Below are positions 1 to 21,363 of a DNA stretch of 64,000 bases, piece by piece. Both the position numbers and the translations under genes were made by a program. Source of the stretch: a virus; the IMG/VR virus record IMGVR_UViG_3300045988_083295, positions 1 through 64,000 of that record. One strand, written 5' to 3'. The notes under the pieces are model-generated. The model made no database searches. It saw nothing but the letters and a program-made list of their open reading frames with translations, and was not told where the DNA came from. Numbering within the stretch: position 1 is the first letter of the stretch; each line of letters opens with the position of its first letter.

Positions 1-90
1 CAGGTGGCACAGCCAGCGCAACAGCCTACTCAGGTGGCACAGCCAGCGCAACAGCAGACCCCTACGGCACAGCCAGCGCAACAACCGCAA
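1..90 (+). repeat. Imperfect tandem coding repeats of about 30 bp (GTGGCACAGCCAGCGCAACAG core).
   Basis: Core 21-mer at 4-24 and 34-54, a shorter copy at 67-83 and a related copy near 157. Encodes VAQPAQQ-type repeats. Confidence 0.7.
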
Positions 91-1074
91 CAGTGGCTCT
101 CTCCATTGGAGCCTACTCAGCCTACTCAGCAAGAGGTCGCTCCTGCTCAGTCTACACAGGTGGCACAACCAGCGGAAGCCCCCAAACGTCGCACGACCTA
201 CGAGGATATTATCCGTCAGATATATCCAGAGATGGACGAGAAAAAGCGAAAAGAAGAAGAGGAGAGGATCAAACGGAAGAAGAAGCGTGATAGCACCATT
301 GCTGCTATTGGGGATGCCCTGACAGCCATGGCCAACATTGCGGCCACGACTAGATATGCCTCTCCTGCTGACGTGACCACCAACAACATGAGCAAGAAGG
401 TTAAGGAGAGATATGACAAGATTAAGGCGGATCGCGACAAGAACTATGAGGCTTATCGTCAGATGATTGCGCGTGCCCAGCAACTGGATGCTCAGCAATA
501 CGAGAATGACGTTGAACAATATAATAAGGCTAGCGAGAAGGCTAATGACGATGCTTGGAAGAGATACATGGACGTGTCTAACTACGAACAGCGAGAACGC
601 GCGAACAATAACAACTACAATTATCACACGGCCGAGCTTGAGCAGAAGGATAGGCAGTTCAAGGAGCGTATGAAGCAAGACTTTAAGATTGCCAAAATGA
701 AAGCAGACGCAACAAGGTACGCTGCTGACCGCAGATCTAGCGGTAGCGGTGGGGATCAAGTTGTAGAAGGATATCCATTACCCGACCCCAAAACGCATAA
801 GGACGTATATTTCAAGAACAAGGACGTATGGGAAGCTAAATACGCAGAGTGGTACCCAGACGATTCGCCAGAAGGGACTAGCTATGTATCCACTCGTACT
901 GACGACAAGGGGCATGTGACCACGACAAAAGGTACAAGGACTGGCGGATATACTCCTGGTCAGATTGGCCGAAGAGTAGCTAAGGAGAAGGAGAAGTGGG
1001 CCTCGGCTGCAAAAGCGAAGCAGCAAGGCAAGAAGGGTAACTTAATGAAAGGCAAAAACTACGGAAGCAAATAA
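1..1074 (+). CDS. Hypothetical virion-associated protein, 5'-truncated by the window edge. Q/P-rich repeat N-terminus and K/E-rich helical middle.
   Basis: Open frame from nt 1 to TAA at 1072-1074. It lies directly upstream of the giant ORF on the same strand. No recognisable catalytic motif. Confidence 0.6.
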   Translation, partial: QVAQPAQQPTQVAQPAQQQTPTAQPAQQPQQWLSPLEPTQPTQQEVAPAQSTQVAQPAEAPKRRTTYEDIIRQIYPEMDEKKRKEEEERIKRKKKRDSTIAAIGDALTAMANIAATTRYASPADVTTNNMSKKVKERYDKIKADRDKNYEAYRQMIARAQQLDAQQYENDVEQYNKASEKANDDAWKRYMDVSNYEQRERANNNNYNYHTAELEQKDRQFKERMKQDFKIAKMKADATRYAADRRSSGSGGDQVVEGYPLPDPKTHKDVYFKNKDVWEAKYAEWYPDDSPEGTSYVSTRTDDKGHVTTTKGTRTGGYTPGQIGRRVAKEKEKWASAAKAKQQGKKGNLMKGKNYGSK

Positions 1075-1086: not shown

Positions 1087-4000
1087 ATGCCAATAGACAA
1101 CAAAAAACTGAAAAATCTCTATGACGCAATGCGTCAAGAGGGATACGACCAGTCTTACGATGAGTTTCGGGGTGCATTCCTTGGCAATAACAACTACGCC
1201 AATCGTAAGGATATCTACGATACGATGTCAAGCGGTGGCTATAACCTTGGCAAGACTTATGCGGAGTTCATGACGAGCATGCGGGTTGCTCCTAAACAAG
1301 CTAATAATAGAGCTTCGGCTCAGGCGGCTGCGGCCAAGAGCGCACCAACCCAACCCACCAAAGGTGGCTGGAGACCTAACGCGGAACAGATGGCTGGATA
1401 TCAGAAATTCACCGATGGCGTGCTTCGCACAGTCAAAAATGGTGACGATGTGATGAATCGGGTTAATAGGCAAGTTGCCAGAGCTACACGCCCCAATCAG
1501 CAGAAGGTTAATCTTGGCTTCAACAACAAGCATAGTCTGTTGGGTGGTGGTAGTCAGGTTCAGCATGAAGGCAAGAAGTTCGATGCAGCCAAAGGTGACT
1601 TCGTTGACCAATATTCAACGGAGGCCGGTAACGTGTATGACAACACGTATGAAGCCGATGCCGAACAGTACAATATCAACCGCAACAAGAGGGATGCGGA
1701 TACTCTTGATATGGTGGCCGACATAGAGAGACAGATTCGCGAGCAGGAGGAATTGCTGGAGAAGACAAGGAAGGCCTCTCGCGATGTCAAAGCACCAGAC
1801 AATCTGTGGGATGCGCTCCGTTACACCATGTCTCATGCTGATGGTTCCCGTCTTGATCAAGAAGATATTGACGAGGAAGCCATTAAGGCCAATATCACAA
1901 ACCTCCAGAATAGGCGATCGCTCCTGCTACATGGTACTTCAATAGGTCAGAAGGTAGGCAAGTCCATTGGCGACCAACTTGCAGAGGTCAATAAGATGAT
2001 CAACGCGAATCTTGATGATTATTACAAGAATCATCCTGACGGTGGTCCTAAAATTCATGACCTTGAATATAACGAGATTTGGTCCATTCCTTCCAATCCT
2101 TATCTGGATGTGGCTAAGAGGTCTCTTGAGGATGCCCAAGAGATGTTCAATGAGGCTGGAAAGTCTGTAGGCGAGAGTGGATTGACGGGGTTCGGTAAAG
2201 GAGTAATAAGAGGCTTCGGCAGTAAGTTGTTCGACGCACGTACATGGGACATGGGCTACACCGACCTGAAGGGAGGGCTGTCTCTTGCAGAGGTCTTAAA
2301 AAAGGCCGATGAAGGCAAACCACTTACGGTTGAACAGCAGAAGATGCTCGATGCCAAGGCTACGGAATTGGCATGTGCGGCCTACTTCAGTGGGGCGTTA
2401 GGGCGTGGATATAAGGCAGGACAAGTGACGGCTGAATCTATTCCCTTCATGCTTGAATTTATGCTCAATCCGCTGTCGGGCACTGGCAGATCAGCGCAAG
2501 CCATGCTGACGAGATATGCCCTTAAGCGATTCGGTCGTAAGGCCACCATGGAGCTGGGTGAAGATGCGGCCAAGAAGATTCTCTATGGCGATATCAGGCA
2601 GCTCACCAAATCTGTCTTCGACAAGGGTCTTAGCAAGGGTGCAAGAAGGCTTGCAGCGAAGACTCTTGCAGGCAAGGCGAGTGCTCGCATTGCAGGTGAT
2701 ATAACTGGTGCCGCTGGCATGACGTTCACCACTGGGCAAGGCCGTGTGGCTGCCGATATGCTCAACCGCGCGACTGGCCAAGTGAAGTTTGGCGTAGACA
2801 CAGACGGCAAAGTAAAATATACAGGTCACGATGCTCCTGAAGAGAGTAGCCTTCTTACGGCTTACGGTAAGGCGTTCGGTTCGCAATTCAGTGAGAATTA
2901 CTCGGAGTTCATGGGTCCCTATATCTCCTATGTTGGAGGCATGTTCGCCAATGGCCTGAAGAAGATAGGAGGAAAGTACTTGTTCGATGGTCTTTCTTCC
3001 TTGCGCAATCGCTCTGCGGCAGCGGTTATGAAGCTTCCGTTCGCCCCTATGGTGTCTGACTTCATTCGTGAAGCAACCAAGTCTGATTGGGCGAAGGTTA
3101 TAAAGGGCATGCAGAAGCGTGCCCACTGGGACGGCACAGCAGAGGAATATCTTGAGGAGGTTGCTGGCAATATGCTTAATGCCATCCTCGTAGGGGACAA
3201 CGATTTTTCAACCGAGGAGGGACGTGGTGTGTTCAACCTGAGCGATAACATTGATACCTTCCTTGGTGTCGGCCTGATGTCGGGTGCGATGTCGGTTTCC
3301 TCTGCGGCTGGCTATCGCACACCGGCCTATCGTGCTCGCAAGATGGTTGAGAATGCTGATGCTAGGGGTGAGAAACTTATGGGCGGCAGTCTGTGGGGGA
3401 AGTTCAGATCTTCCTTCGATGCGGCTCAGAGCGAGCAGGACAAGCAGGTGATTCTTACTTCATTGCTTCAGAATAGTAGCCTTACAAACGAAGGGCGTAG
3501 GGCTGCGCTGCAATATGCAATCGGTAAACAATTCCAGCAAGCTGTGGCTGACGGCACCTTCCGCGAGATGGAGGAAGATGCTGAGAAGGGCAATGAAGTT
3601 GAGCGTGCTTGCCGTGCCGAATATGCAGAAGGGCAGAATATTGATTCTGTGGAGGAGATGCGTGATGCCAAGACGAGGTATAACGTGTTGCTCCGTGAAG
3701 CTCTTGCCGTTGAACCTAACGCTGAGATATATTCTGACCCTCAGTTTTACGAGCAGTCCAATCCGAATGCTACGCCTGAACAGAAGGCCGCTATGCGTGC
3801 TTATGCTGAAGCCAAGGCTCAATATGAGGGTGTGGCCGACCGAATGAAGACGGACATGGCCGATCAACAGCAGAAGGCCAACGAGCAGGTCGATAGGTTC
3901 AAGAATCAGACTGACGGATTGATCACTAGGGTCAGATTGAGGGGCAGCGATGCGGAGTTCTACGTGACCAGCGGCCACATATCCCTGAACAATGACGGAA

Positions 4001-7000
4001 CGATAAATGATGCAGCCACTAGCAGTAACCTTACTATCGTTGATGGTGAGGGAAATGAGCGATTCATCTCACGTGGTGATGTCGTTGATGTGCTCGCGCA
4101 GAACACCCCGGAGGAGACCCTTGAGCAGCTTAACGATATTATCATGAATGAAGCCAAGGCGAAGGCCGATCTCATTGACGGCAAATTGTCCTTCCGTGCT
4201 GGCGATACGTTTACCATCCTCAACAACGAAGGTCAGGAACAGAAGGTGACCATTGCGCAAGACCCGTCAACGATGGCCATGTCTGCCGTCATTGAGGGTG
4301 AGCAAGCCGCTGTACCTCTTACGGAGGATTCCATGGCCAAGTTGCAGCAGATGTCTGATGCTTATCAGGAGTCTCGATTCGGCAAGTATAGGCAAGAACA
4401 GCTGGATGCTGTTGCCAATGCTGAGAACGAGGCCACGCAAGAGGGTACTGCTCCTGCTTCACCTACTGCCGCACAAGAGGAGACCGGTGAGCCTACCGAA
4501 GCCCGTTCATATGGCTATGGAGAGAGCGTAAGCTACGTGGATGGCGAAGGCCATACGCAGGAGGGTGTTGTCCATGGGAAGACTCCTGAAGGAACGTATG
4601 AGGTTGAGTTCGACAATCCTCCTTCAGGCAAGAATGTCGTGGATGAATATACGCAAGAGGAACTTGATGCACTTGTCCAGCCTATTCCTGCCGGACAAAC
4701 GGAAGAGGCAATCCCCGAGCCTACCGCATTGGAGCGTGTACCCATCAACGAGGAGACCGGTGAACCTATGTTCGAGAAGGCTGACAGCGAGACTGCCCTT
4801 GATGCCCTCAATGAAGTTACCGGAGGAAACGAAGACAATACTACCGCCATCGTGAGAGCGCAAGTGGAACAGGCGACCAAGGCGCTTGAAGCGTTGAAGA
4901 AGAAGAAACCCAGCAAGAAAGCTCCTTCGCTGAAGGGTTCTCCACTGGCGATGGTAAAGGCGCAGCAGGAAGCAGAGGCCAACTACAACACTGCGATGGA
5001 AGAGTATAACGCCCAAGTAGCCGCTGCAGAAGAGAATTTGAACGCTTGGTCGCGTATCAACTCCCTTATGAATGACAGAAAGCGTGCTATCCGTGAGCAG
5101 CAGGAGGCAGAGCGCAAGGCTCGCGAGGAAGAGCTACATGCCGAAGCCGTTGCACGCCTGGAGGAAGACAAGCGCATTGCCGCTGAGAAGGCAGCCGAGC
5201 AGGAAGCAGTAGGAACCCATGCCGTGAACCCGAAGATAAAGGCCAAGTGGGACGGAGCTACCAAGGTTGAGGGCAATCCTAACGCTATCACCCTTGCAGA
5301 CGGTTCTACAATCCGTGGTCACTACGTCCTCACTGAGGCAGGAGCAGCCACCGCCAGCCATGACGTGAACAACGCTTACGAGCCTACTGAAGGTTTCCCT
5401 GTCGACGAGAATGGTGAGAGCGTGAATGACCGCGACTACAAGCGTGACAGAGATGCGCAGCGCATTGTCAGGGATATGGCAGACAGCTACGACGGCAGAG
5501 CGTTGCAGTCTCCGGTCATTGTCAGCAAGGACGGTGTTGTGCTTTCGGGCAATAACCGCACCATGTCGGGCGAGATTGCAGCAAGGCAAGGTACAGACAA
5601 GGCGTATGTGGCCCACTTGCGCGAGTTTGGGGCCATGTTCGGTTTCACTCCCGAGCAGATTGACGGTATGCAGCATCCGCGCGTAGTCTTCGTTCCTGAT
5701 GAGGAACTGCCATACGATGCCAATACGTTTGCACGCTTCAATGCCGAACAGCAGAAGAAGCAGAGCAAGCCGGAGCATGCCGTGAAACTTGGCAAGATTG
5801 TTCCTGACAATGTGTTCACAAGCATTGTGGGTGACATCAGCCGCTTTGATCGCATGTCGGACTACTATGCCGACGGCAAGGCCGCAGCTTCAGCCATTAG
5901 CCAGTTGTTGGATGCTGGTGTTATCAATGAGATGCAGTTGCCGGAGCTTCGCACTGGCAATGCTTTGTCAGCTGCCGGCAAGGAACTTATCGAGAATACG
6001 CTTATAGGCAAGGTCTTCCAGACTTCGCCAGATGCCGTGCGTCAGATAATCAGCACACCGACATTGCGTCAGTCAGTAGTAATGGGCTTGAACGAGATTG
6101 CGAATAACCGCACGCTCGCCAAGAGCGGCTACGACCTCAGCAAGGAGTTGGCAGCAGCCGTTGACCTTGTGAGCCGTGCCAAGGCAGAGGCTCCGGAAAT
6201 CTATAAGGAAGGCATGCCTGTATCGCCTTACGGCAGACAGCAGGGGCTGTTTGATGACGAATACGGAGATAGCCGTGTGACCGATGGCGTGACGTTGCTC
6301 CTTGCGGACCTGCTTAACAGCGGAAAACCGAGCGACCTGCGCAAGGTTCTCTCAACATACAATCACGAGGCAGCATCCCCTGCCGCAGGTCTGATGGACA
6401 TGTTCAGCGGAGACGTGCCCTCTAAGGAAGACGTATTGAATAACGTATTAAATCATTTCAGGAATGCAACACCAAAAGAACAACAAGCAATCGTTGATGC
6501 AGCCATTGCAGAACGAAAGCGTAGAGCCGAAGCAGCAGAGCCAGGAGGAGGAAGCCAAGGAGGTGAACAAACTGAGAATGCTGTTAGGGGCAGTGAAGAA
6601 ACATCAGCCGAGAACCTTGGAGGAAATCAGGCAGATGGTATTCAGGAAAAACTAACGGAAGAAGAGGCCGATGCAATGCTTGACAGAATGAAAAGCATCG
6701 CTGACCCTATGCCTGAGGTTGAACTAACTCCTGAGAACTGGATGAATACCTTTGGGTTGAGTAATAAGATAGACACGCCTATTGGAGAAGTAAAAATGGG
6801 AGAATCACAATATGCCAAGCTGATGGAGAAGAAACGCTCCAAGGAATTTGGTATGGTTGTTGGTACCATTACAGATCCTGATGTTGTGTTTATAGAGCCA
6901 AGTTCAGCAAAAGACGGACAGGTTACAGAGCGAGCTTATTCTTACGTATTTGTAAAGACATTCAAAAAGGAAGATGAGAACGTAAGATATTACTCTTCTG

Positions 7001-10000
7001 TAACGGTGTCTATTGACGGTATGGAAATATCTGTAAGCAGCCATTATATAAACAGCAATAAGGCCAAAAAAAAATTGCTGGAGTTGAACCGCAGATATAC
7101 AAAAACTGCATTAATCTCCAACAGCTCTGATGGGCGCTTAGCTGAACAGCAGGATGCTGTGCCGGACCTCCTTCCTACGCAAGAGAATAATGCAGTTTCT
7201 GACCTTCCTTTTCCTAAGGATGGTGTTTCTGTAGGCGAAGATACAGCAAATTCTACAGAGTTGCAAGGAAATGGTAAGGAAAGTTCGCATAAAGGTTTTG
7301 TACCCGATGAAAAGGTAATAGAAGAAAACGTGCAAAGGTCTGAAAGAGCGTTAGGATTACCAAGTTCTGTTAAACGTGAAAAGACAGAAGTAAAGGTTTC
7401 AGACAATGGTAAGGTGATGGTCATTAAGACTGACTATTCTGCAAACGGAAGCAAAGCAAGTGTGATAACCTTGTTAGCTGAAAATGATGGACAATTGGAT
7501 TGGGCAGCTCAATCATTTGTTGATGGCAAACCTACTTCGGAATTAAAGTATGATTATACGTTGTCGTATGACGATATGATGGAGATGTTTGACGATAATG
7601 ATGCTATACGTCAAGACATTAATCCATTGAAACAGATAGCCCGAAATGCAGGCATAGACATTGATGCCTTACTCAATGGAAAGGAACATGGAACAAAAGT
7701 TTCAATAGAAGCGAGCAGAGAGAAAACTTCTGAAAACGAAGGTGAAAAAACCCTTTCAGCCCAGATTGAAGATGCTTCAGCCGATGTGAACACCGAACCC
7801 ACCGAGGCACAGAAGGAAGCTGGCAACTACAAGAAGGGGCATGTGCATGTCGGTTCGTTCGACATTACCATTGAACAGCCGCAAGGAAGTGTGCGCAAAG
7901 GCACGGATGCCAATGGCAAGCAATGGGAAAGCAAGATGCACAACACCTATGGATACTTCCGAGGTACAGAAGGCGTGGATGGAGATCACATTGATGTGTT
8001 CCTCTCCAATGACATTGACGGTTGGAACAGACAAACAGTGTTTGTTGTTGACCAGTACAACCCTGATGGCAGCTTTGACGAGCACAAGGTTATGCTTGGC
8101 TTCAATAATGCAGAAGAGGCCAAGAGGGATTATCTTGCCAACTATGAGAAGGGCTGGGAAAATGGCCGTAGGATTGACGTGTCCGCTGTGAACCTTGCAG
8201 ATTTCGAGAAGTGGATAGCGAGCAGCCACCGCAAGACCAAGCCATTCAGTGAATATTCATCGGTGAAGAAGGAAGGCTCTTCCTCATCAGAAACCAAGCA
8301 GTCAAAGTCCACTGCTGAGGAGAAGCCTTTCAACGCGGTCATTGAGATGCTCCGCAAGAAATTCCCTGATGCCAGCATGGAAGCACTCACGGCTGCTGAC
8401 AGGCTTTTGCGTGAACAGGCATTGCCCGGTGAGCGACAGAAGGCCATTGAGGCTGTAGCGAAGGCTCTTGGCCTCAAGGTCGAATGGCGCGACACGATGG
8501 AAAAGGAAAATGGTACGTTCAATCCGAAGACCCGCACCATCACCATTGCACGCGACTCCGAGCATGCCCTTGCCAACACGTTCGGGCATGAGGTGACGCA
8601 TGCCGTGCGCAAACTCTCTGAAGCCGACTACAAGAACCTGAAGGATGCCGTAAGAAGACTGTATCCCTCCGAGAAGGAATACAATGAGGCTGTGCAGGCT
8701 TATGGCGAAGTGTACACCGACTTGGACTTTGATGCTCTGGAAGAGGAACTTATTGCCGACAACATTGGTTTCATGATTGGAGGCAGGAACGACATGACGC
8801 AGGAACTTGCCTCACGCATGAACCATCGCGTTCTGTGGGCTATCCATGACGCAATGAATAAGGTGAGGAATGCCCTTGCGAAGGTTCTGCACATTGACTC
8901 CAAGAAGAACGGACTCTTGGAGGCTATTGATAGTGCCAGAGCTACTATCCGCGAAACGATGGCGAACGCCCAGCGTATTGCGAAGGAGAAGGGACAAGGA
9001 CTTTCAAACGAATCGGATTCCACAAAGCAGTCTCTTCGCACGCAGGACACCACCATACGCGATGCCCTTGTCGAGCGTATGCGCTTGTCGGGCATGGATG
9101 TGATCACTGATGAGACCGGACAGAGGGTGCTGGATATGGCGAATGGAAGGGATACGCGGTTTGAAGCAGCTCGCCACAAGAGCGAAGCAGCACGTAGACG
9201 TGACGAAATGCTCCGCGCAATAGACCAAGCTAAAGCTTTTATTTCAGGCAAGACTGAGCAGCAGACTCGAGCAGAACGCCGTGAAAGAGAGCGGAAATTC
9301 AGAGAAGAGACCAAAGTTTTGTATGACAGAGTTTTGGCAGGAAATTTTGATTCCGTAACTTTGCAGCTGTTAGACGATTTCATCAACAAAGTAACTCCTA
9401 ATAATTATTATGGAAGACCTCTTTCTAAACGACTTTCAGAGAGAACACTACGAAAAGTGTATGAAAGAGAACGAACGAGTAGCGTCGATGCACTTTTCAG
9501 CAGAATATCTGAGAGCGCAGTCCCAGCGGATGAACGAACTCGTCCAGAAGCAAAAAGAAGAATTGAGGAGAAAAAGAAAGAACTCCTCAAAGGCTGGGCA
9601 ATAGCCACTGGTAATTGGCACACAGCTGTATCTGATTTTACAGATGACACCAAGCCAATTGGCAGTGGTAAGGATTCTGTTGTATATCACAGCAAGGACG
9701 GCAAAAGCGTAATCAAGGTTTCCAAGGGAAAGGAAAGTGCAAGAAAATTCCGTCCCGACATGGACAATGTTGCTCTCTTCAACACTGTATTCCCTGCAAG
9801 CAAATACGAAATCATAGGCTATGGCGAAATTGACGGCAAGTTCGTTCGCTTTCTTCGTCAGCCAATTGTGGACTTCACCGACAGCACTCCGTTGTCGGTG
9901 GAGGAACGTGTTGCCTATATGGAACGCCTTGGCTTTAGGCCGATGAACGATGAAAAGACTGCTTTCACAAATGGAGAGATAGTTGCTTCGGATATCCAAG

Positions 10001-13000
10001 GCAATAATATAGTGAAAGATAGAGATGGGAATATCCGTGTGATTGATGCGGATATGCGTTTCCACACTAAAGAGTTTGGTGGAAAATATTCCTATCCAGC
10101 AGTTGAGACGGATACTGAAACAGCGCCTAACATTCGTGAGCAGCGCGTCTACCATGGTAATGGTGCTAATGATGTCCGTTTCTTCCGCACTGCAAATGGC
10201 AAGGCTTACGGCTTTACTGTTGGCGGCAAGATTTACATTGACCCAAGGATTGCGACAAGCGAGACCCCGGTGCATGAGTATGCCCATTTGTGGGCAACAG
10301 CCTTGAAGAGTGCGAATGCCAAGGAATGGCAGAACGTGGTAGGGCTGATGAAGGGCACGAAGGTTTGGGATGAGGTGAAGGCTCTTTATCCCGAATTGAA
10401 ATCAGATGACGAAATCGCTGATGAGGTGCTTGCCACTTATTCAGGCAGACGTGGTGCTGAACGCTTGCGTGAGGAGCAGCGTAGAATTGCCAAGGGAAAT
10501 GGCAGTGTGTTCGAGAAGGCTGAAGCTATCAGTGCTTTGGAACGCGTGAAGCAGGCTCTGAAGAGATTCTGGAAGGGCGTTGCTGATTTCCTGCATATTC
10601 ACTATACGAGTGCGGAAGAGGTTGCCGACCGCGTGATGAAGGATTTGCTGGATGGGGTTGATCCGCGTAAGTTTGGTGATGGTGGTAAGTCTCTTGATGC
10701 CTACAACAAAATTCGCAAGCATTTCATCGGTGAGCAGGGTGCGGAGCGTGCCGACCATGCTGAAGAGGTGACAACTCGCATTGACAACCTGAACGTTGCT
10801 CGCGAGATGGAAGATGCCAAGAAAGATGCCAAGGCTATCAAGATGGCTACCGGTTGGGAACGTGGTGCTGACGGCAAGTGGCGGTATGAGATACCCGACT
10901 TGAAGTATTTTGGCAAGGGTGATGCTGGTTACAAAAAGGCACGTGGAAAGCAACCTTGGAGCAAGGAACTTGATGGCTTGTCAGACAAGATATTTGATGG
11001 TGAAGAACTTTCGGAATCAGAATACCGACGTTTTGATGAACTTGCACAAAAGGAAGATGATTTCAAGACAGACTATCTGAATAGAGAAAAACCGCACCTT
11101 GCTGATTGGGTGGAGAATGACGAGTTGTTCAAGGCTTATCCCGACTTGAAGCGTGTGAATGTTGTGTTTACTGACCAACTGCCTACAAATGTGGGTGGCA
11201 GTTACAATGAGCGTGAGCATACTATTGTTGTCAATACGAATTATGTGGGAGACATAGATTCCGTATTGGCTCATGAGGTTCAGCATGCTATTCAGAAGAT
11301 TGAGGGTTTTGCGAGGGGCGGTAATCCAGAATCTATACAAGAACGGTTTAAGGCTGCTAAAAAGGAATGGCGTGCGCGTGCTTGGGCTGATGAATTGCGT
11401 TACAAGGCAGATGAAATGGGCGAACATTACAATCAAGCAGCAGTGGAAAAAGCCTTGATTGATGAGTATAAGGAGATGGGCATGGATGATGATGAATGGA
11501 TGCCTGACAAAGAAACTCGCATGAAGGGCTTTAATTACTTTGCAAGGGGTTATGCAGACAGAAGCATGGATGCTGATATTAAGAATTTCAGGTTGGCTGA
11601 ATCCACTCGTGCAGACTTTAATCCTTATATGGAATACACTAAACTTGGTGGTGAAGTAGAAAGCCGTAACGTTGAGAAGCGCATGAAAATGTCCCCAGAG
11701 GAGCGAAGAGCAAGTCTTGCCGCAGAGACAGAGGATGTTTCCAGGGAAGACCAGATATTCTTGTTTGGCGAGGACGGTACTAGCATGAAGACCTCATCTG
11801 ATTTGAACGAAATGTTTGGCAATCGTTGGCTTGACGAGCAGACGAACGATGATGGCCGTCATACCACTCAGGTGAAGAGCACCATCAACTCTTACAAGAA
11901 GTTTGGGGATTGGGTGAAGCGCGACTCCAATGGCCGTGACGTGGACGTGCTTGATGCGAGCAGTGGATTGGGGCTTGGTACGGCATGGATGAGGGACAAT
12001 GGGTTCAAGGTTGATGACGTTGAGCCGTTCCCATCAGACAGTCGTGAAGCACCTACGTTCAGCAGCTATGATGAGATAGACAAGAAGTATGACTATATCA
12101 TCAGCAATGCGGTTCTCAATGTGATCCCTGACGATTGGCGTGCCAATGTGCTTCATCAGATGGCCGACAAACTCAAGGATGGCGGCAAGCTGGTGATTAA
12201 TGTGCGTGGAGCGGAGGGTATCCGTAAACAAGGCATTGAGGGCAAGACTCGCACCACACTTGATGATGCTTCCGAGATTCTTGTCCATCGTCCTGACGGC
12301 AGCATTAAATCCTATCAGAAGGGCTTCACGAAGAGCGAACTGAAGGAATGGTGCGAAAAGGAATTGGGCGAAGGTTATTCGGTTGAAATAGCGAATAACA
12401 AGAATGCTGGCGGTAGCTATGACACTGCGGTTGTGGTGACTAAAAATAACGAAAGCGACATTGAGACTATCAATACGAAATTCAATGAGGAATTGCAGCA
12501 GCAGATAGACGGCACATTGCCAGAAGGTCACATCTATAAGATGGGCAAGCCTGGGCGCATATTGCTCTCTACTGGCGTACCAAATCTTCCCATACAGATG
12601 AATGCGAAAAGACTCCAAGTCAAGGCTACATTATTTGACCATGATTTTGACCTATCGGAAGTGAAAGATTTAGTGAGAGTCTTGCAGCACCCATTGGCAG
12701 TTTTTGCCTATGGTGACAAGTCGAAGGCGCAGAACATCATTGTTCCGCTGCAAAAAGATGGTAAGAACTTTATCGTTGGACTTTCACTCAATCCCACTGT
12801 TGGCGGTCGCAAGTTGGAAATAAACAGCATAAGAAACGTCTTTCCGAAAGACAATTCAGAATGGCTCAATTGGATAAATCAAGACAAGGCCTTGTATATA
12901 GACAAAGAAAAAATCCAAACCCTCATAGACCAACAGCGAACCAATCTCGCTGACGTGGCCTACTTGGATTTGGACTCTGTTGCAAATGTAATGGAAAATT

Positions 13001-16000
13001 TTGAAAATCCAAAGGTTTCTGACGAAAATGTTGCAGATGGCGGCATTATGTTCCGCAATGGTGGGGCTGCGGATGCTGAAAAGCAGTCTCGCAGAGGAAC
13101 GCCCAATCTCTACCCAGACCATATTGCACAAGCTATCTATGAGCAGTCTGTGAGCGGTTTCAAGTTTGACTTGGATGAAGCATGGCATGACTCCTTGCTC
13201 AGTGTGAAACGTCTTCAGGAGGCCATATCCGAGACTCGCGGTGTGCCTATCAGGGACTTCGAGAACGTCTATTGGCATGCCGTTACCCTCAGCAGTGTGA
13301 ATGCGGCTGAGATGGAGCAGTTGATGAATCTTCGTATCCAGCCGTTCATTGAGGCGGTTCAGGATATATGCAAGAAGCATGACCTGACTCAGGAAGACAT
13401 TGAGGTGTATCTCAACTGCAAGCATGGCTTGGAACGTAACGAAGCGATGGCTCGCAAGTTTGCCGAGGCCAAGGCCGAAGAGGAATTTGAGGCTGAACTC
13501 AAGAAAGCCCAGAAGACTGCAACAGCCAATCCTAACGACCAAGCTGCCCAGCTGGCTCTTTTGGATGTGCAGCTGCGCATGAATGACAGAAAGCACGAAC
13601 TCTATCTCAAGAACCGCGAGAAGGATTACTCAGGTCTTACGGATATTTTCGACCCGAAGGATAAGGTCACTGGAGACAGACTGGATCTCACCGTTTCGGA
13701 ATTGGAAGATAAGGCAAAGAAGTGTGTTGATGATTTCGAGGCTAAAGTAGGTGTAGCGGAAGTGACCAAGCTGTGGGACAACATTCATGAACTCAACAAC
13801 TACTCACTTCGCAAGTCCTATCTCAGTGGTCTTATCAGCAAGAATCAGTACGACAGCGTGAAACAGATGTACCAGTGGTATGTGCCTCTGCGAGGCTTCA
13901 ACGAAGAGGTTGCTGGCGATGTGTACACGTATGTGACAAGAGGCGAGACGAGGACTCAGCAGCTTCTGAAGGAGGCCAAGGGACGTACTTCACGTGCTGG
14001 AGATATTCTTGCCACCATGATGAATATGGCCAATTCTGCCGTGAACCAGGGAAACCGAAATCTCATGAAGCAGAAGATCCTCAATCTCGCGCTTAACGCC
14101 AAGAGTCCTCTGTTGTCTGTGAGCAGTACATGGTATCAGACGGATGCCAACGGATTTGACGTACCCATTGAGCCGCCCATCAACGACCAGATGACTCCTT
14201 CAGAGCAGAAGGATGCCATCGAACAGTGGGAGGATACGATGGAGATGCTGGCCAAGCAGGGCAAGGTTCATCGCATGAGCGACAATCTCAGATTGAATCT
14301 CCGCACCCAGAAATGGCAGGCAGATGAGCATTGTATCCGCGTGCAGCGTGGCGGCAAGGAATATTGCGTATGGGTGAATGGTAATCCACGTGCAGCTCAA
14401 GCACTCAATGACAGACTTGGGAATCAGGTCACCAAACCGTACAAGGCAACTGAGACTATTCTGGACAAGGCCGAAGACCTCTTCACGGATGGCTTCATAA
14501 AGATATTCAGATATATGGCTCAGAGCGTGACAAGCCTTAACCCCGAATTCGTCATCAGCAACTTCCAGCGAGACCTCGCTTCCGCTTCGCTCATCAGCAC
14601 GGGCAAGTATGGTGCAGGTTACACGAAGGACTTCCTTGTCAACGTGAAACGACTTGGCGTGCTCACAGGAACTATGTCTCACAAGAAGGAATACCGCAAC
14701 GCAGCAGGTATCTATACGCTCTACAGCAAGTATAAGTCAGGAAACCTTGACAACAACAACGAGATGGAGCGTTACTTTGCCGAATTCATGGCGAACGGAG
14801 GCGAGACCGGCTACACGCAGTCGCTCAGTATTAAGGACTACCAGTCCCGTATCCAATCAGCACTTGGAGACAAAGGCTTTGTGAAATGGTCAAAGAATGC
14901 TGGCCATGCCGTTGCTGATTTCGTTGAGATGGCCAATAGGGGTGTGGAGAACACCTGCCGATTCGCAGCATACATGACAAGCCGTCAACACGGCAAGAGT
15001 GTGCTGCAATCCATCGTTGATGCGAAGGAAGCGAGTACGAATTTCAATCTCCATGGCGCAGGAGGATTCGGTAACGCTTGGCTGAGGAAGAGCATTATCT
15101 TCATCAATCCTGCCGTGCAGAGTATTGTGCAGTATTGCCAACTGACGGCCAAGCACCCGAAGGCCATGCTTTCCATGCTTGGCGGTACCATCGGCCTTGG
15201 TGCAGCTATGGCATTTGCTTGCGCCAGTATGGTCGCACCGGGTGGCGGTGATCCTGACAGTAATTACTGGGATCTGTCTGATTACGTCCGACACAATTAC
15301 ATTGTGATACCTAGCGGTAATGGGAATTGGACACGTATTGCACTCCCTCCCGAAATCAGAGCCGTGTATGGCCTTGGCGTCATCGCGATGGAGGCCGCGA
15401 TGGGACGGATGAATCATAGCAGCATTCCTGCGGCTATCGGTGATCAGCTTATGCAGTTCTCCCCCGTTGCCTTCCTTGATCCACGCAACTTCTTCAACAG
15501 AAGCGACAGCGATCACCCTGTCGGCAAGACCTTGTTCAGGGCATTTATACCTACGCTCCTTTCACCTCTTGCAGATGCATACGTATTTGACGAGGATTTC
15601 ATGGGGAGACAGATTACGGGCAAGAATGACTTCAATGATGACAAGCCAGAGTTTCAGCGGACAAGCTATGATACCCTTCCGCAGTTGGTATCCTTCTCAA
15701 GGTGGCTCAACAATATCAGTGGCGGCAACGACTACAAGAAGGGCTGGATCAATGTCAATCCATCGTCAGCAGGTTATGTGGCTTCCCAATATATCGGTGG
15801 TCCCTTGCAGTTCTTCACGAAGATAGGCAAGACGGTTGCCATGATTACCTATGAGGACTTGCGCGATATGCGCAATGTGCCGTTCCTGAGCCGATTCATG
15901 ACATCCACAGACAATGACTATGGCCGCAATCAGGTAAGCAATGCAGAATTCAAGTATTGGTCTGCCATTGCAGATGATGTCAGAACTCAAATCAGAGGAT

Positions 16001-16374
16001 TCGAGAAGGAGATTGAATCTGGCGATACAAAGAATCTTGATGACTACAAGAAACTCGTCAGCAGTAAGGAATACGAGATGTATCAGATGATTGACTATAT
16101 GGATTGGCTGAAGGATATCAGGGAACTCAACCAGAAACGCAAGGAAGAGACTACGCAGGATGCCCAGAAGCAGGTTACGCTTGAGATTTATGAGGTTCGT
16201 CGCAAGATGGCCGAATGTCTCAACAAGGCTGAAGAGATGGGTGTTTATCTGGAGATGGGTCAACTCAACCTTGAATTGGCCAATGCCAAGACCACGGAAG
16301 AGAGGGCTGCCATACAAGCCAAGATCAACGAGAAACGCAAAGAGAATCTAAAGAAAATCGGAGCGATTGAATGA
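1087..16374 (+). CDS. Giant multidomain polyvalent protein (5,095 aa), probably virion-packaged and ejected.
   Basis: Uninterrupted 15,288-nt ORF (ATG 1087, TGA 16372-16374) followed by a hairpin plus T-run. The translation contains ParB-like, pyrophosphatase-like, three HExxH, kinase-like and SAM-methyltransferase motifs, plus a hydrophobic C-terminal region. Confidence 0.9.
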   Translation: MPIDNKKLKNLYDAMRQEGYDQSYDEFRGAFLGNNNYANRKDIYDTMSSGGYNLGKTYAEFMTSMRVAPKQANNRASAQAAAAKSAPTQPTKGGWRPNAEQMAGYQKFTDGVLRTVKNGDDVMNRVNRQVARATRPNQQKVNLGFNNKHSLLGGGSQVQHEGKKFDAAKGDFVDQYSTEAGNVYDNTYEADAEQYNINRNKRDADTLDMVADIERQIREQEELLEKTRKASRDVKAPDNLWDALRYTMSHADGSRLDQEDIDEEAIKANITNLQNRRSLLLHGTSIGQKVGKSIGDQLAEVNKMINANLDDYYKNHPDGGPKIHDLEYNEIWSIPSNPYLDVAKRSLEDAQEMFNEAGKSVGESGLTGFGKGVIRGFGSKLFDARTWDMGYTDLKGGLSLAEVLKKADEGKPLTVEQQKMLDAKATELACAAYFSGALGRGYKAGQVTAESIPFMLEFMLNPLSGTGRSAQAMLTRYALKRFGRKATMELGEDAAKKILYGDIRQLTKSVFDKGLSKGARRLAAKTLAGKASARIAGDITGAAGMTFTTGQGRVAADMLNRATGQVKFGVDTDGKVKYTGHDAPEESSLLTAYGKAFGSQFSENYSEFMGPYISYVGGMFANGLKKIGGKYLFDGLSSLRNRSAAAVMKLPFAPMVSDFIREATKSDWAKVIKGMQKRAHWDGTAEEYLEEVAGNMLNAILVGDNDFSTEEGRGVFNLSDNIDTFLGVGLMSGAMSVSSAAGYRTPAYRARKMVENADARGEKLMGGSLWGKFRSSFDAAQSEQDKQVILTSLLQNSSLTNEGRRAALQYAIGKQFQQAVADGTFREMEEDAEKGNEVERACRAEYAEGQNIDSVEEMRDAKTRYNVLLREALAVEPNAEIYSDPQFYEQSNPNATPEQKAAMRAYAEAKAQYEGVADRMKTDMADQQQKANEQVDRFKNQTDGLITRVRLRGSDAEFYVTSGHISLNNDGTINDAATSSNLTIVDGEGNERFISRGDVVDVLAQNTPEETLEQLNDIIMNEAKAKADLIDGKLSFRAGDTFTILNNEGQEQKVTIAQDPSTMAMSAVIEGEQAAVPLTEDSMAKLQQMSDAYQESRFGKYRQEQLDAVANAENEATQEGTAPASPTAAQEETGEPTEARSYGYGESVSYVDGEGHTQEGVVHGKTPEGTYEVEFDNPPSGKNVVDEYTQEELDALVQPIPAGQTEEAIPEPTALERVPINEETGEPMFEKADSETALDALNEVTGGNEDNTTAIVRAQVEQATKALEALKKKKPSKKAPSLKGSPLAMVKAQQEAEANYNTAMEEYNAQVAAAEENLNAWSRINSLMNDRKRAIREQQEAERKAREEELHAEAVARLEEDKRIAAEKAAEQEAVGTHAVNPKIKAKWDGATKVEGNPNAITLADGSTIRGHYVLTEAGAATASHDVNNAYEPTEGFPVDENGESVNDRDYKRDRDAQRIVRDMADSYDGRALQSPVIVSKDGVVLSGNNRTMSGEIAARQGTDKAYVAHLREFGAMFGFTPEQIDGMQHPRVVFVPDEELPYDANTFARFNAEQQKKQSKPEHAVKLGKIVPDNVFTSIVGDISRFDRMSDYYADGKAAASAISQLLDAGVINEMQLPELRTGNALSAAGKELIENTLIGKVFQTSPDAVRQIISTPTLRQSVVMGLNEIANNRTLAKSGYDLSKELAAAVDLVSRAKAEAPEIYKEGMPVSPYGRQQGLFDDEYGDSRVTDGVTLLLADLLNSGKPSDLRKVLSTYNHEAASPAAGLMDMFSGDVPSKEDVLNNVLNHFRNATPKEQQAIVDAAIAERKRRAEAAEPGGGSQGGEQTENAVRGSEETSAENLGGNQADGIQEKLTEEEADAMLDRMKSIADPMPEVELTPENWMNTFGLSNKIDTPIGEVKMGESQYAKLMEKKRSKEFGMVVGTITDPDVVFIEPSSAKDGQVTERAYSYVFVKTFKKEDENVRYYSSVTVSIDGMEISVSSHYINSNKAKKKLLELNRRYTKTALISNSSDGRLAEQQDAVPDLLPTQENNAVSDLPFPKDGVSVGEDTANSTELQGNGKESSHKGFVPDEKVIEENVQRSERALGLPSSVKREKTEVKVSDNGKVMVIKTDYSANGSKASVITLLAENDGQLDWAAQSFVDGKPTSELKYDYTLSYDDMMEMFDDNDAIRQDINPLKQIARNAGIDIDALLNGKEHGTKVSIEASREKTSENEGEKTLSAQIEDASADVNTEPTEAQKEAGNYKKGHVHVGSFDITIEQPQGSVRKGTDANGKQWESKMHNTYGYFRGTEGVDGDHIDVFLSNDIDGWNRQTVFVVDQYNPDGSFDEHKVMLGFNNAEEAKRDYLANYEKGWENGRRIDVSAVNLADFEKWIASSHRKTKPFSEYSSVKKEGSSSSETKQSKSTAEEKPFNAVIEMLRKKFPDASMEALTAADRLLREQALPGERQKAIEAVAKALGLKVEWRDTMEKENGTFNPKTRTITIARDSEHALANTFGHEVTHAVRKLSEADYKNLKDAVRRLYPSEKEYNEAVQAYGEVYTDLDFDALEEELIADNIGFMIGGRNDMTQELASRMNHRVLWAIHDAMNKVRNALAKVLHIDSKKNGLLEAIDSARATIRETMANAQRIAKEKGQGLSNESDSTKQSLRTQDTTIRDALVERMRLSGMDVITDETGQRVLDMANGRDTRFEAARHKSEAARRRDEMLRAIDQAKAFISGKTEQQTRAERRERERKFREETKVLYDRVLAGNFDSVTLQLLDDFINKVTPNNYYGRPLSKRLSERTLRKVYERERTSSVDALFSRISESAVPADERTRPEAKRRIEEKKKELLKGWAIATGNWHTAVSDFTDDTKPIGSGKDSVVYHSKDGKSVIKVSKGKESARKFRPDMDNVALFNTVFPASKYEIIGYGEIDGKFVRFLRQPIVDFTDSTPLSVEERVAYMERLGFRPMNDEKTAFTNGEIVASDIQGNNIVKDRDGNIRVIDADMRFHTKEFGGKYSYPAVETDTETAPNIREQRVYHGNGANDVRFFRTANGKAYGFTVGGKIYIDPRIATSETPVHEYAHLWATALKSANAKEWQNVVGLMKGTKVWDEVKALYPELKSDDEIADEVLATYSGRRGAERLREEQRRIAKGNGSVFEKAEAISALERVKQALKRFWKGVADFLHIHYTSAEEVADRVMKDLLDGVDPRKFGDGGKSLDAYNKIRKHFIGEQGAERADHAEEVTTRIDNLNVAREMEDAKKDAKAIKMATGWERGADGKWRYEIPDLKYFGKGDAGYKKARGKQPWSKELDGLSDKIFDGEELSESEYRRFDELAQKEDDFKTDYLNREKPHLADWVENDELFKAYPDLKRVNVVFTDQLPTNVGGSYNEREHTIVVNTNYVGDIDSVLAHEVQHAIQKIEGFARGGNPESIQERFKAAKKEWRARAWADELRYKADEMGEHYNQAAVEKALIDEYKEMGMDDDEWMPDKETRMKGFNYFARGYADRSMDADIKNFRLAESTRADFNPYMEYTKLGGEVESRNVEKRMKMSPEERRASLAAETEDVSREDQIFLFGEDGTSMKTSSDLNEMFGNRWLDEQTNDDGRHTTQVKSTINSYKKFGDWVKRDSNGRDVDVLDASSGLGLGTAWMRDNGFKVDDVEPFPSDSREAPTFSSYDEIDKKYDYIISNAVLNVIPDDWRANVLHQMADKLKDGGKLVINVRGAEGIRKQGIEGKTRTTLDDASEILVHRPDGSIKSYQKGFTKSELKEWCEKELGEGYSVEIANNKNAGGSYDTAVVVTKNNESDIETINTKFNEELQQQIDGTLPEGHIYKMGKPGRILLSTGVPNLPIQMNAKRLQVKATLFDHDFDLSEVKDLVRVLQHPLAVFAYGDKSKAQNIIVPLQKDGKNFIVGLSLNPTVGGRKLEINSIRNVFPKDNSEWLNWINQDKALYIDKEKIQTLIDQQRTNLADVAYLDLDSVANVMENFENPKVSDENVADGGIMFRNGGAADAEKQSRRGTPNLYPDHIAQAIYEQSVSGFKFDLDEAWHDSLLSVKRLQEAISETRGVPIRDFENVYWHAVTLSSVNAAEMEQLMNLRIQPFIEAVQDICKKHDLTQEDIEVYLNCKHGLERNEAMARKFAEAKAEEEFEAELKKAQKTATANPNDQAAQLALLDVQLRMNDRKHELYLKNREKDYSGLTDIFDPKDKVTGDRLDLTVSELEDKAKKCVDDFEAKVGVAEVTKLWDNIHELNNYSLRKSYLSGLISKNQYDSVKQMYQWYVPLRGFNEEVAGDVYTYVTRGETRTQQLLKEAKGRTSRAGDILATMMNMANSAVNQGNRNLMKQKILNLALNAKSPLLSVSSTWYQTDANGFDVPIEPPINDQMTPSEQKDAIEQWEDTMEMLAKQGKVHRMSDNLRLNLRTQKWQADEHCIRVQRGGKEYCVWVNGNPRAAQALNDRLGNQVTKPYKATETILDKAEDLFTDGFIKIFRYMAQSVTSLNPEFVISNFQRDLASASLISTGKYGAGYTKDFLVNVKRLGVLTGTMSHKKEYRNAAGIYTLYSKYKSGNLDNNNEMERYFAEFMANGGETGYTQSLSIKDYQSRIQSALGDKGFVKWSKNAGHAVADFVEMANRGVENTCRFAAYMTSRQHGKSVLQSIVDAKEASTNFNLHGAGGFGNAWLRKSIIFINPAVQSIVQYCQLTAKHPKAMLSMLGGTIGLGAAMAFACASMVAPGGGDPDSNYWDLSDYVRHNYIVIPSGNGNWTRIALPPEIRAVYGLGVIAMEAAMGRMNHSSIPAAIGDQLMQFSPVAFLDPRNFFNRSDSDHPVGKTLFRAFIPTLLSPLADAYVFDEDFMGRQITGKNDFNDDKPEFQRTSYDTLPQLVSFSRWLNNISGGNDYKKGWINVNPSSAGYVASQYIGGPLQFFTKIGKTVAMITYEDLRDMRNVPFLSRFMTSTDNDYGRNQVSNAEFKYWSAIADDVRTQIRGFEKEIESGDTKNLDDYKKLVSSKEYEMYQMIDYMDWLKDIRELNQKRKEETTQDAQKQVTLEIYEVRRKMAECLNKAEEMGVYLEMGQLNLELANAKTTEERAAIQAKINEKRKENLKKIGAIE
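5210..5780 (+). other. ParB/Srx-like domain within the giant ORF (ddrB-type ParB as seen in polyvalent proteins).
   Basis: Motif ALQSPVIVSKDGVVLSGNNRTMSGEIAARQG (about 5500-5590) fits the ParB N-terminal pattern P-[IV]-x-V...G-x-x-R. A long helical extension follows, to about 6460. Confidence 0.55.
7822..8225 (+). other. Inorganic-pyrophosphatase-like domain within the giant ORF.
   Basis: HNTYGYFRGTEGVDGDHIDVFL resembles the family I PPase signature NYG[FY]IP.T...DGDP.DV.V. Confidence 0.45.
8325..8890 (+). other. Zincin-like metallopeptidase module 1 within the giant ORF.
   Basis: HEVTH at 8587-8601, preceded by TRTITIARDSEHALANTFG (SprT/ArdC-like context). Confidence 0.5.
9617..10085 (+). 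other. Protein-kinase-like module within the giant ORF.
   Basis: Gly-rich loop plus Lys (IGSGKDSVVYHSKDGKSVIKVSKG). Catalytic-loop-like DIQGNNIVKDRDGNIRVIDADM (D...N...D). Confidence 0.5.
10138..10660 (+). other. Zincin-like metallopeptidase module 2 within the giant ORF.
   Basis: HEYAH at 10273-10287, preceded by GGKIYIDPRIATSETPV. Confidence 0.5.
10846..11775 (+). other. Zincin-like module 3 with flanking polyvalent-protein-associated region.
   Basis: GWERGADGKWRYEIPD, then AYPDLKRVNVVF, then HEVQH at 11272-11286, then GGEVESRN. I recall this arrangement from large phage and plasmid polyvalent proteins. Confidence 0.5.
11850..12450 (+). other. Class I SAM-dependent methyltransferase module within the giant ORF.
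   Basis: Motif I VLDASSGLGLGTAW, then DDVEP, then YDYIISNAVLNVI, then LKDGGKLVINV. Confidence 0.6.
15163..15234 (+). other. Predicted transmembrane helix in the C-terminal part of the giant ORF.
   Basis: AMLSMLGGTIGLGAAMAFACASMV is an uninterrupted hydrophobic stretch. Confidence 0.5.
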
Positions 16375-16381
16375 CAAAGAA

Positions 16382-16414
16382 GAATCCCCTGCCTCATGGT
16401 GGGGGATTTTTTTG
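16382..16414 (+). terminator. Rho-independent terminator after the giant ORF.
   Basis: GAATCCCC/GGGGATT stem with an 11-nt loop, followed by a T-run. Confidence 0.75.
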
Positions 16415-16420
16415 TTGCGT

Positions 16421-16435
16421 GAGGACGGAAATACG
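16421..16435 (+). promoter_or_regulatory. 15-mer GAGGACGGAAATACG, copy 1.
   Basis: Exact second copy at 21364-21378. Both lie upstream of plus-strand gene starts. Confidence 0.4.
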
Positions 16436-16470
16436 GCAACGCTATGGTTATCTACGCCTAACTTCGCGAC

Positions 16471-17055: not shown

Positions 17056-17057
17056 CA

Positions 17058-17555: not shown

Positions 17556-17564
17556 GGATACAAG

Positions 17565-18795: not shown

Positions 18796-18802
18796 TTAGA
18801 CT

Positions 18803-21311: not shown

Positions 21312-21336
21312 GTGTAAGGGGAATATGATGTGGTTG

Positions 21337-21344: not shown

Positions 21345-21363
21345 ATCAATATATACTACTCAA

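Follow-up and report, generated by a model that had tools for sequence, protein, structure and literature searches.

A question raised by the IMG/VR virus record IMGVR_UViG_3300045988_083295, of which positions 1 to 64,000 were analyzed (referred to here as the window), is what kind of protein is encoded by the open reading frame (ORF) at positions 1087 to 16374 of the plus strand, and how it may serve the phage. This giant ORF comprises 5,095 codons from an ATG start to a single terminal stop, and its product of 5,095 amino acids (aa) has a mass of 569 kDa and a pI of 5.3. An earlier reading made from the letters alone, the sequence-only reading, had taken the product for a polyvalent protein in the sense of Iyer, Aravind, and colleagues, encoded by a temperate phage without a long tail. 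Profile searches bore out this view and nearly every module named in it. By its architecture, the giant protein is almost certainly a polyvalent protein. As an overall interpretation, which is regarded as probable, we favor a phage-type polyvalent protein that most likely resides in the capsid of a short-tailed temperate Prevotellaceae phage and is expelled together with the DNA.

The polyvalent class (Iyer, Burroughs, Anand, de Souza, Aravind 2017, PMC5512222) is characterized by many unrelated effector-type domains in one polypeptide encoded beside portal and terminase genes. The giant protein agrees with it in the number of domains, in the presence of class-specific families, and in being encoded by a phage with a portal-terminase system. 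The portal of this phage is P22-like, and S24 repressor and integrase-like genes are also present. Among the matches were seven Pfam families that derive from polyvalent proteins, all above their cut-offs: LPD14, LPD23, LPD38, ddrB-ParB, InPase, Kinase-PolyVal, and MuF_C; PBECR and zincin peptidases of the class are represented as well. No difference in kind from the class was seen, the approximately 11 recognizable modules comparing with a reported range of 2-15. Pfam scans were performed on overlapping 1,000-aa segments and on the stretches that were left unassigned. Ten modules matched at E <= 3.4e-5, to which one sub-threshold match (PBECR2) and one zincin recognized by its motif only were added. 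The features of the gene, all on the plus strand, are given in order.

2095-5688, plus strand: conserved N-terminal frame (aa 337-1534), with LPD14 and ddrB-ParB inside, common to the Bacteroides TP phages
3067-3309, plus strand: LPD14 (aa 661-741; Pfam, E = 2e-15)
5299-5679, plus strand: ddrB-ParB (aa 1405-1531; E = 5.8e-7; marginal, 30.1 bits against a cut-off of 27.6)
6766-7068, plus strand: PBECR2-like predicted ribonuclease (RNase) (aa 1894-1994; PF18810, E = 1.2e-4; sub-threshold, 22.7 bits against 27.1)
7804-8217, plus strand: InPase, type I pyrophosphatase-like (aa 2240-2377; PF18823, E = 1.2e-54)
8368-8607, plus strand: zincin 1, SprT-like/DUF6782, with HEVTH at 8587 (aa 2428-2507; PF10263, E = 2.4e-8, 34.2 bits against 25.6; phrog_87 metallo-protease)
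9568-10065, plus strand: Kinase-PolyVal (aa 2828-2993; PF18762, E = 4.9e-33)
10144-10716, plus strand: zincin 2 block with HEYAH at 10273 (putative, from motif and topology)
10768-10902, plus strand: LPD23 (aa 3228-3272; PF18838, E = 5e-12)
11119-11295, plus strand: zincin 3, SprT-like, with HEVQH at 11272 (aa 3345-3403; PF10263, E = 3.4e-5, 24.1 bits against 25.6, just below the cut-off; phrog_13543, phrog_87)
11929-12216, plus strand: class I S-adenosylmethionine (SAM) methyltransferase of the Methyltransf_23 type (aa 3615-3710; PF13489, E = 2.5e-9)
12637-12918, plus strand: MuF_C, a PBECR-type predicted RNase (aa 3851-3944; PF18819, E = 1.3e-18)
13054-16371, plus strand: conserved C-terminal module of ~1,100 aa, with a hydrophobic helix (15163-15246) and LPD38 (phrog_14770, E = 6.5e-133)
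13078-13962, plus strand: helical "handle" domain (aa 3998-4292) that opens the C-terminal module, with long helices in the AlphaFold (AF2) model; a recurrent recombination block
15256-15882, plus strand: LPD38 (aa 4724-4932; E = 4.6e-29)
~16384-16414, plus strand: terminator-like hairpin and T-run (stem 16392-16404 in the scan, then GATTTTTTTG)

LPD14, LPD23, and LPD38 were not among the modules of the sequence-only reading. It had placed a ParB-like domain at about 5.2-5.8 kb, a pyrophosphatase-like domain at about 7.8-8.2 kb, a kinase-like domain at about 9.6-10.1 kb, and a class I SAM methyltransferase at about 11.9-12.4 kb, and the corresponding profile was found at each of these places, marginally so for ddrB-ParB. 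The uninterrupted frame and the terminator that it had reported were likewise recovered from the ORF list, the translation, and the hairpin scan. Of its two suspected nuclease- or MuF_C-type modules, one is MuF_C itself, and the one at 6.7-7.1 kb stayed at the sub-threshold PBECR2 match. The MuF_C and PBECR families are predicted Barnase/EndoU/RelE-like RNase domains, and the polyvalent-type kinase has been reported mainly from (pro)phages of Verrucomicrobia-Chlamydia and Bacteroidetes (PMC5512222).

Three HExxH zincins had also been proposed. The motifs lie exactly at the three positions named (nucleotides 8587, 10273, and 11272, corresponding to aa 2501, 3063, and 3396), placed between cargo modules, and zincins 1 and 3 match SprT-like; for zincin 2 the proposal stood on motif and topology only. 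The dedicated MPTase-PolyVal model gave no match in the giant protein in the Pfam scan. In zincin 2, residues H3063, E3064, H3067, and E3113 do not vary among homologues, even at 26% identity, and the AF2 model, with a predicted local distance difference test score (pLDDT) of 77, has three short strands and then the HExxH helix. No relative of this block was found in Pfam, in a PDB sequence profile search, or by Foldseek against PDB (E <= 0.001). It is thus a putative zincin, classified by motif and modeled topology only. The methyltransferase exhibits class I motif I in the form VLDASSGLGLGT in the translation. No DNA N6-adenine (N6A) or C5 signature was present in Pfam terms, and DNA is therefore not its obvious substrate. 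PDB sequence searches with the kinase, methyltransferase, and ParB segments returned nothing significant, and PADLOC reported only a weak mad2 match, on the methyltransferase.

InPase is the best-conserved module. It is 65% identical to its counterparts in the Bacteroides temperate phages BS-TP4 and BKO1-TP3 (PQ571277 / PQ571269), versus 24-30% for the flanks, and it matched PF18823, the polyvalent subtype, with 184 bits over profile positions 1-134 of 135. Its sole PDB sequence match was to residues 637-763 of the portal gp19 of Pseudomonas phage Pa193 (E = 3e-27), a C-terminal extension that is the unmodelled part of that structure. In the alignment to gp19, DGDHIDVF and FDEHK of the acidic metal-binding motif are conserved, and catalysis is predicted. 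When aa 1400-4000 were compared by tblastn with 50,697 phages, 474 records were obtained. Nearly all of the matches listed ran via InPase, many among them were annotated as minor head proteins of PB1-like phages, and P1 was absent among them; InPase occurs in "minor head proteins" of hundreds of phages. PHROG matches in this region were to DarB-like antirestriction, virion structural protein, and minor head protein families. These matches in portals and minor head proteins agree with the portal fusions noted by Iyer et al. (PMC5512222), who proposed injection. Besides catalysis in the host, or instead of it, InPase may have a function inside the capsid.

The last ~1,100 aa had been set apart in the sequence-only reading as a C-terminal region with a hydrophobic helix, and this helix was located at aa 4693-4720, just ahead of LPD38. 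Counted with a threshold on 19-mers, it is the only strongly hydrophobic stretch in all 5,095 aa. Of the 32 sequences in the alignment, 28 have one such segment at the corresponding position (27 if only the 31 homologues, at 28-46% identity, are counted), and its sequence is itself variable. Retention of the position without conservation of the sequence is a pattern typical of a membrane-inserting helix. The AlphaFold model of the module, built from 32 sequences, is mostly helical (pLDDT 73), with a long-helix domain at residues ~22-272, a disordered or low-confidence linker at 281-310, and then a larger mixed domain. Neither sequence profiles nor Foldseek (E <= 0.001) identified a relative of the module in PDB.

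The module links the giant protein to a protein of known location. Its residues aa 4247-4937 are homologous to residues 2053-2698 of gp47 (vb_24B_48) of the Shiga toxin (Stx) phage phi24B (24% identity over the C-terminal ~690 aa, including LPD38 and the hydrophobic stretch; E = 8e-34), and the module was also found in Ralstonia GP4-like and Vibrio phages. According to a 2026 preprint, purified virions contain gp47 in abundance by proteomics, yet the cryo-EM density lacks it, and it has been proposed to be an encapsidated ejection protein (bioRxiv 10.64898/2026.04.10.717836). It comprises 2,807 aa with LPD5, LPD1, MuF_C, and LPD38, so that MuF_C is shared as well. Both phages are temperate and short-tailed and have no gene larger than the giant ORF. 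The protein studied here differs in being about twice as long and in having another N terminus and other cargo; its gene precedes the packaging genes, whereas that of phi24B stands at the end of the late region. Within the polyvalent class, the giant protein belongs to the LPD38-terminated phage group that includes gp47. Virion presence has been shown for phi24B gp47 only. A head module shared with phi24B and GP4 was considered and rejected, since portal against portal gave a best E of 0.036; the portals are not detectably similar, and this limits the transfer of the phi24B virion evidence to the giant protein.

The size of the protein had been thought unusual, a view that was not sustained. 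Used as a probe, the C-terminal module retrieved 190 database clusters and more than 568 IMG/VR contigs. An exhaustive HMMER search with it over 1.84 billion representatives yielded 5,607 proteins (E <= 1e-3), of which 4,269 reached E <= 1e-10 and 1,245 reached E <= 1e-30, and among the matches listed the module stood at the C terminus of giant proteins. In the 131 best representatives that were new, lengths of at least 4,000, 5,000, 5,095, and 6,000 aa were reached by 81, 37, 34, and 9 proteins, respectively, with a maximum of 6,743 aa. The frame was still open at the locus edge in 55 of the 62 IMG/VR loci that have the full 10-kb upstream flank. The cultured phages BS-TP4 (gp3, 5,391 aa) and BKO1-TP3 (gp55, 5,553 aa) encode ORFs with the same frame that are annotated "hypothetical" or "DarB-like". 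In view of these lengths, the open IMG/VR frames, and the cultured-phage ORFs, 5,095 aa is mid-range for the family. Judged against these relatives, the giant protein is unexceptional in size and kind; thousands of similar phage proteins are recorded.

Comparison with BS-TP4 and BKO1-TP3 divided the protein into a frame and a cargo. Three parts align, namely aa 337-1534 (24%), InPase (65%), and aa 4002-5047 (30%), and the cargo between them differs; in gp3 of BS-TP4 the N-terminal frame is 24% identical across ~1,250 aa (E = 4e-52). The Bacteroides phages share with the window a partner ORF, the N-terminal region, ddrB-ParB, InPase, the LPD38 C-terminal module, genomes of ~64 kb, an integrase, and a giant ORF ahead of the head genes. 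They differ in that the portal directly follows the giant ORF, and in gp3 of BS-TP4 the place of kinase, zincins, methyltransferase, and MuF_C is taken by a SNF2-type helicase. The paper on these phages (PMC12694917) contains no discussion of the giant proteins.

Swapping of modules was evident among close relatives, at 94-98% identity (L027, L026, P0225, P0001, and L115). The contig L027 is a mosaic with the giant gene, in which blocks of 95-98.6% nucleotide identity alternate with replaced or inserted modules and the breakpoints lie near aa 1211, 1803, 2655, 3565, and 3998; its ParB-like module is replaced. MuF_C is replaced both there and in P0225, a database protein of 5,052 aa that departs from the giant protein in this module only. 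In P0001 and L026, a C5 DNA methylase and a PBECR-like module stand directly ahead of a 98%-identical C-terminal module. The exact order of modules is new as far as the searched collections show, and is variation within a family whose cargo is shuffled routinely.

P1 DarB, named as the classic relative in the sequence-only reading, proved to be related in concept only. DarB (2,255 aa; N6A-methylase plus helicase; a capsid-packaged antirestriction protein) is likewise a large multi-enzyme encoded beside a portal gene, and its injection protects the incoming DNA. Sequence kinship was rejected: the best BLASTP match had an E of 0.099, phmmer found nothing, and Pfam gave no match to a helicase or N6A-methylase module in the giant protein. 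The label "DarB-like" reflects a PHROG matched via the InPase region only.

The surroundings of the gene were analyzed next to its product. Relatives of the InPase-zincin region occur in genomes of Prevotellaceae, Prevotellamassilia, Muribaculaceae, and Alistipes. The features needed below are as follows.

4-1074, plus strand: conserved partner ORF of 356 aa, directly upstream of the giant ORF
17052-18795, plus strand: three tandem small ORFs (167, 202, and 209 aa), all phrog_19255, between the giant ORF/DUF6808 gene and TerL
18803-20923, plus strand: large terminase gene (TerL), downstream of the giant ORF
24398-26410, plus strand: P22-like portal gene, downstream of the giant ORF
30883-31818, plus strand: family 2 glycosyltransferase (GT2; GtrB-like, O-antigen conversion type), amid structural and tail genes
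downstream, plus strand as the giant ORF: tail-fibre protein with an S74 chaperone domain
33865-34434, plus strand: endolysin-like gene, separate from the giant ORF
41038-42246, minus strand: integrase-like ORF of 402 aa, with Pfam matches to N-terminal SAM-like integrase domains only and not to the catalytic domain
56597-57547: Dam-type N6A DNA methyltransferase encoded on its own in the early region, distinct from the methyltransferase module within the giant protein
59892-60674: SPFH/Band-7 protein in the early region

The partner ORF had no Pfam or PHROG match and is homologous to gp2 of BS-TP4 and gp56 of BKO1-TP3, which occupy the same position before their giant ORFs (E ~1e-12). On the 3' side, a DUF6808 protein and then the three small paralogous ORFs follow on the same strand. 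No small terminase was recognizable in the window, and no tube or tape-measure genes were found in it. A low-GC stretch at 40000-46000 (0.40-0.43 versus ~0.48 elsewhere) carries the lysogeny genes, that is, the integrase-like gene and the S24 repressor (41-44 kb), and recombination, replication, and Dam genes extend from there to the end of the window (47-64 kb). From the set of TerL, portal, tail, and lysogeny genes it is deduced that the window represents a temperate phage genome of the short-tail type, ~64 kb in size.

A mechanism is proposed that builds on results of five kinds: domain identities, family membership, the frame-and-cargo pattern of conservation, module swapping, and homology to a virion-borne protein. 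Its statements on packaging, ejection, processing, and all targets are interpretations of these. Packaging of the giant protein in the virion appears likely by analogy with gp47. The constant frame would consist of the N-terminal ~1,500 aa, InPase, and the C-terminal ~1,100 aa (handle, hydrophobic helix, and LPD38). It would serve incorporation into the head, possibly via the conserved N- or C-terminal parts, exit through portal and tail, and contact with the cell envelope, the C-terminal module using its single hydrophobic helix to engage the membrane. The exchangeable cargo would be the variable middle (aa ~1,800-4,000), composed of the PBECR-like RNase, kinase, methyltransferase, and MuF_C RNase. 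The three interspersed zincins may cut the chain into working units. During the first minutes of an infection, the freed modules might then target nucleic acids, nucleotides, or proteins of the host, the target being RNA for the RNase-like modules and some acceptor for the methyltransferase. According to proposals of Iyer et al. (PMC5512222), the pyrophosphatase-like module clears pyrophosphate (PPi) or acts on nucleotide signals, and the kinase modifies host proteins in analogy with the T7 kinase. New combinations would arise via homologous recombination in the conserved blocks that flank the modules.

Several points weigh against this interpretation. The virion evidence is confined to phi24B gp47; it comes from a preprint, and the bridge to it is the homology over ~690 aa at 24%, with dissimilar portals. 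The terminator-like site splits the giant gene from the packaging genes, and co-expression with the head genes is conjectural. With 569 kDa per copy, the protein is a heavy load for a capsid that accommodates ~64 kb. As the C-terminal module has no structural relative in PDB, its role is deduced from conservation and hydrophobicity only. Zincin 2 is without profile or fold backing, and ddrB-ParB is marginal.

The P22-like portal, the lack of tube or tape-measure genes among those found, and the one conserved hydrophobic helix would also suit a protein that is mainly structural, forming a trans-envelope conduit upon ejection as P22 gp7/16/20 and T7 gp14-16 do, with its enzyme-like modules acting on the envelope (e.g. 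zincins on peptidoglycan or lipoproteins). Such a conduit role was proposed for gp47 by the phi24B authors (bioRxiv 10.64898/2026.04.10.717836), and the most conserved parts of the giant protein are either non-catalytic or without an assigned function. We nevertheless regard this explanation as rather unlikely. Kinase, SAM methyltransferase, ParB-like, PBECR/MuF_C RNase-like, and pyrophosphatase families have cytoplasmic-type substrates, as known for these families (PMC5512222), and SprT-like zincins are not known as cell-wall hydrolases. The phage has its separate endolysin-like gene, and near-identical phages exchange the middle modules freely, a variability to which a structural conduit would be ill suited. 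It is improbable that the protein is not packaged at all and acts as a cytoplasmic multi-enzyme after infection or in the lysogen, in replication and partition, DNA modification, or superinfection exclusion. With the replication/Dam region (47-64 kb) on one side of the gene, the packaging genes on the other, and a terminator-like site behind it, the location would be in accordance with such a function, as would the ParB-like and methyltransferase modules and the truncated relatives without the LPD38 end in a bacterial chromosome (see below). It is opposed by the virion location of gp47, the homologue of the LPD38 module, and by the place beside packaging and portal genes, which is kept in BS-TP4, BKO1-TP3, and L006/L115.

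That the ORF is an assembly chimera or a decaying pseudogene is hardly credible. Blocks with 95-98% identity in other phages and in the chromosomal array described below could mislead an assembler, and the arrangement at aa 3450-4100 is matched by no IMG/VR contig. On the other side, the translation is free of internal stops over 15,288 nucleotides, and cultured phages contain ORFs of 5.4-5.6 kaa of the same build. P0225 matches the giant protein at 94% identity for aa 1-3786 and at 95% for aa 3986-5095. The ENA contig L115 (63,228 bp; giant ORF of 4,881 aa) is collinear with positions 8314-27058 of the window at 97.3% nucleotide identity, and this collinearity spans aa 2410-5095, including the joint at MuF_C. 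A misassembly, which the sequence-only reading had named as one of the findings that would overturn it, is very unlikely because P0225 and L115 are collinear with the giant gene. The ratio of nonsynonymous to synonymous substitution rates (dN/dS) was 0.13 for the C-terminal module against L006, a phage relative. GC along the ORF (0.46-0.54) is uneven without a sharp break. The N terminus is backed by the resemblance of aa 1-195 to the start of gp55 of BKO1-TP3; loci of Prevotella and Prevotellamassilia show similarity to aa 1-71 and 1-144. By tblastn, there were no internal repeats in the giant protein and no further polyvalent cassettes elsewhere in the window; megablast of window positions 1-25000 against the 50,697 phage records gave no match.

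It is predicted that no phage proteins act earlier in an infected cell than polyvalent proteins, of which almost none have been tested, and none from Bacteroidota. The giant protein is a well-delimited candidate for an injected enzyme set (pyrophosphatase-like, kinase, methyltransferase, two RNase-like, and ParB-like domains) in a temperate phage of a common human gut lineage. The natural single-module variants at 94-98% identity are a ready genetic series for module function. With one membrane-type helix and no known fold, the C-terminal module is a candidate for the means by which short-tailed phages pack and expel proteins of more than 500 kDa.

Parts of the cargo were also encountered outside phages. 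At a fixed chromosomal site in Prevotellamassilia, metagenome contigs (from samples that include Hadza and Nepal ones) carry a tandem array of truncated polyvalent ORFs that is hypervariable (L004:2900-18800; L005, the same; L003:9900-17377; L007:580-14200; L118; L119:3100-15844). Where recovered, its left flank is a glycoside hydrolase family 84 (GH84) NAGidase gene (L003, L004, L005, and L119) and its right flank consists of major facilitator superfamily (MFS), RNase Y, and ZapA genes (L004, L005, and L007); L118, which has no bacterial flank, was assigned by content. As to the host, RNase Y of these contigs falls into a 90%-identity cluster with Prevotellamassilia timonensis. The array contains 2-7 same-strand ORFs of ~120 to more than 3,396 aa with polyvalent modules only, its content was different in every version seen, and no N-terminal frame, LPD38 end, or phage structural genes were present in it. 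Zincin 1 (aa 2402-2689), zincin 2 (aa 3029-3199), the methyltransferase, and the handle (aa 3998-4292) are blocks shared with the phage gene. On the DNA level, the zincin blocks are up to 95-98% identical, and the methyltransferase and handle copies are mostly 89-95% identical. Handle-bearing internal ORFs all end right after aa 4292 with the common tail H[HP]KRKHPPLAKTRVNPLPNRRRIMP, at a point that coincides with the disordered linker of the C-terminal model. The last ORF reaches aa 4453-4477, in L118 at the contig edge and in L007 at the right edge of the array.

A conserved junction sequence of ~41 nucleotides, ACCAAGCCCTCAGCAGGTCCCCGAGAGGCCGAGCGCATGGA, was detected at module joints of array ORFs and of the phage relatives L026 and L027 (L004:12182, L007:3304, L026:8360, and L027:9446) and at the left edge of the array (L004:2967, L007:634, and L003:9965). 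In frame it reads TKPSAGPREAE(R/P)ME, and the first array gene begins at its ATG; the sequence resembles a gene start that has been captured. The motif TKPSAGPREAE(R/P) is absent from the window. The aligned array segments are free of stops, and their dN/dS against the phage gene was 0.18-0.47, a value that would suit a functional array and a young remnant alike, since it has contributions from both lineages.

With tandem units, conserved ends, variable interiors, and blocks nearly identical to a full-length gene, the array resembles the orphan cassette arrays of Rhs and CDI systems and pilS-type silent cassettes. It differs from them in that a phage carries the full-length gene, with the array located apart from it in a chromosome, that the units are long intact ORFs with their own starts, and that recombination between gene and array is hypothetical. 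Iyer et al. (PMC5512222) raised cassette-type recombination in a brief mention of cassette-like small ORFs at a Verrucomicrobium locus; the sharing of blocks between phage and array goes beyond that remark, and no published description of the array was found. As a tentative and rather doubtful idea, the middle of the phage gene could be one player in a two-site cassette system, in which the array is a reservoir for homologous recombination by infecting or resident phages, or its handle-bearing products are loaded into particles in trans. Alternatively, the array may be a young prophage remnant. If true, either role would be a novel route of diversification for the counter-defence repertoires of phages, and the array, if functional, bears on the evolution of polyvalent repertoires.

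Two minor observations concern block boundaries in the giant gene. The tripeptide KQS occurs at positions 8296-8304, 9025-9033, and 13081-13089 of the window (aa 2404, 2647, and 3999) in the contexts (T/E)KQS(K/L/R), that is, at three recurrent boundaries of recombination blocks. There are 4 occurrences versus 0.9 expected (P ~0.01, calculated post hoc); the tripeptide could be a linker motif, a cleavage motif, or chance and was not used as evidence. The contig of the 95%-identical phage relative L006 opens with an insertion sequence (IS)-type transposase, DDE_Tnp_1_2 (L006:39-1493), and homology to the giant gene resumes (L006:1682-4885) only at aa 4028, which suggests that an IS inserted itself at the C-terminal module's boundary.

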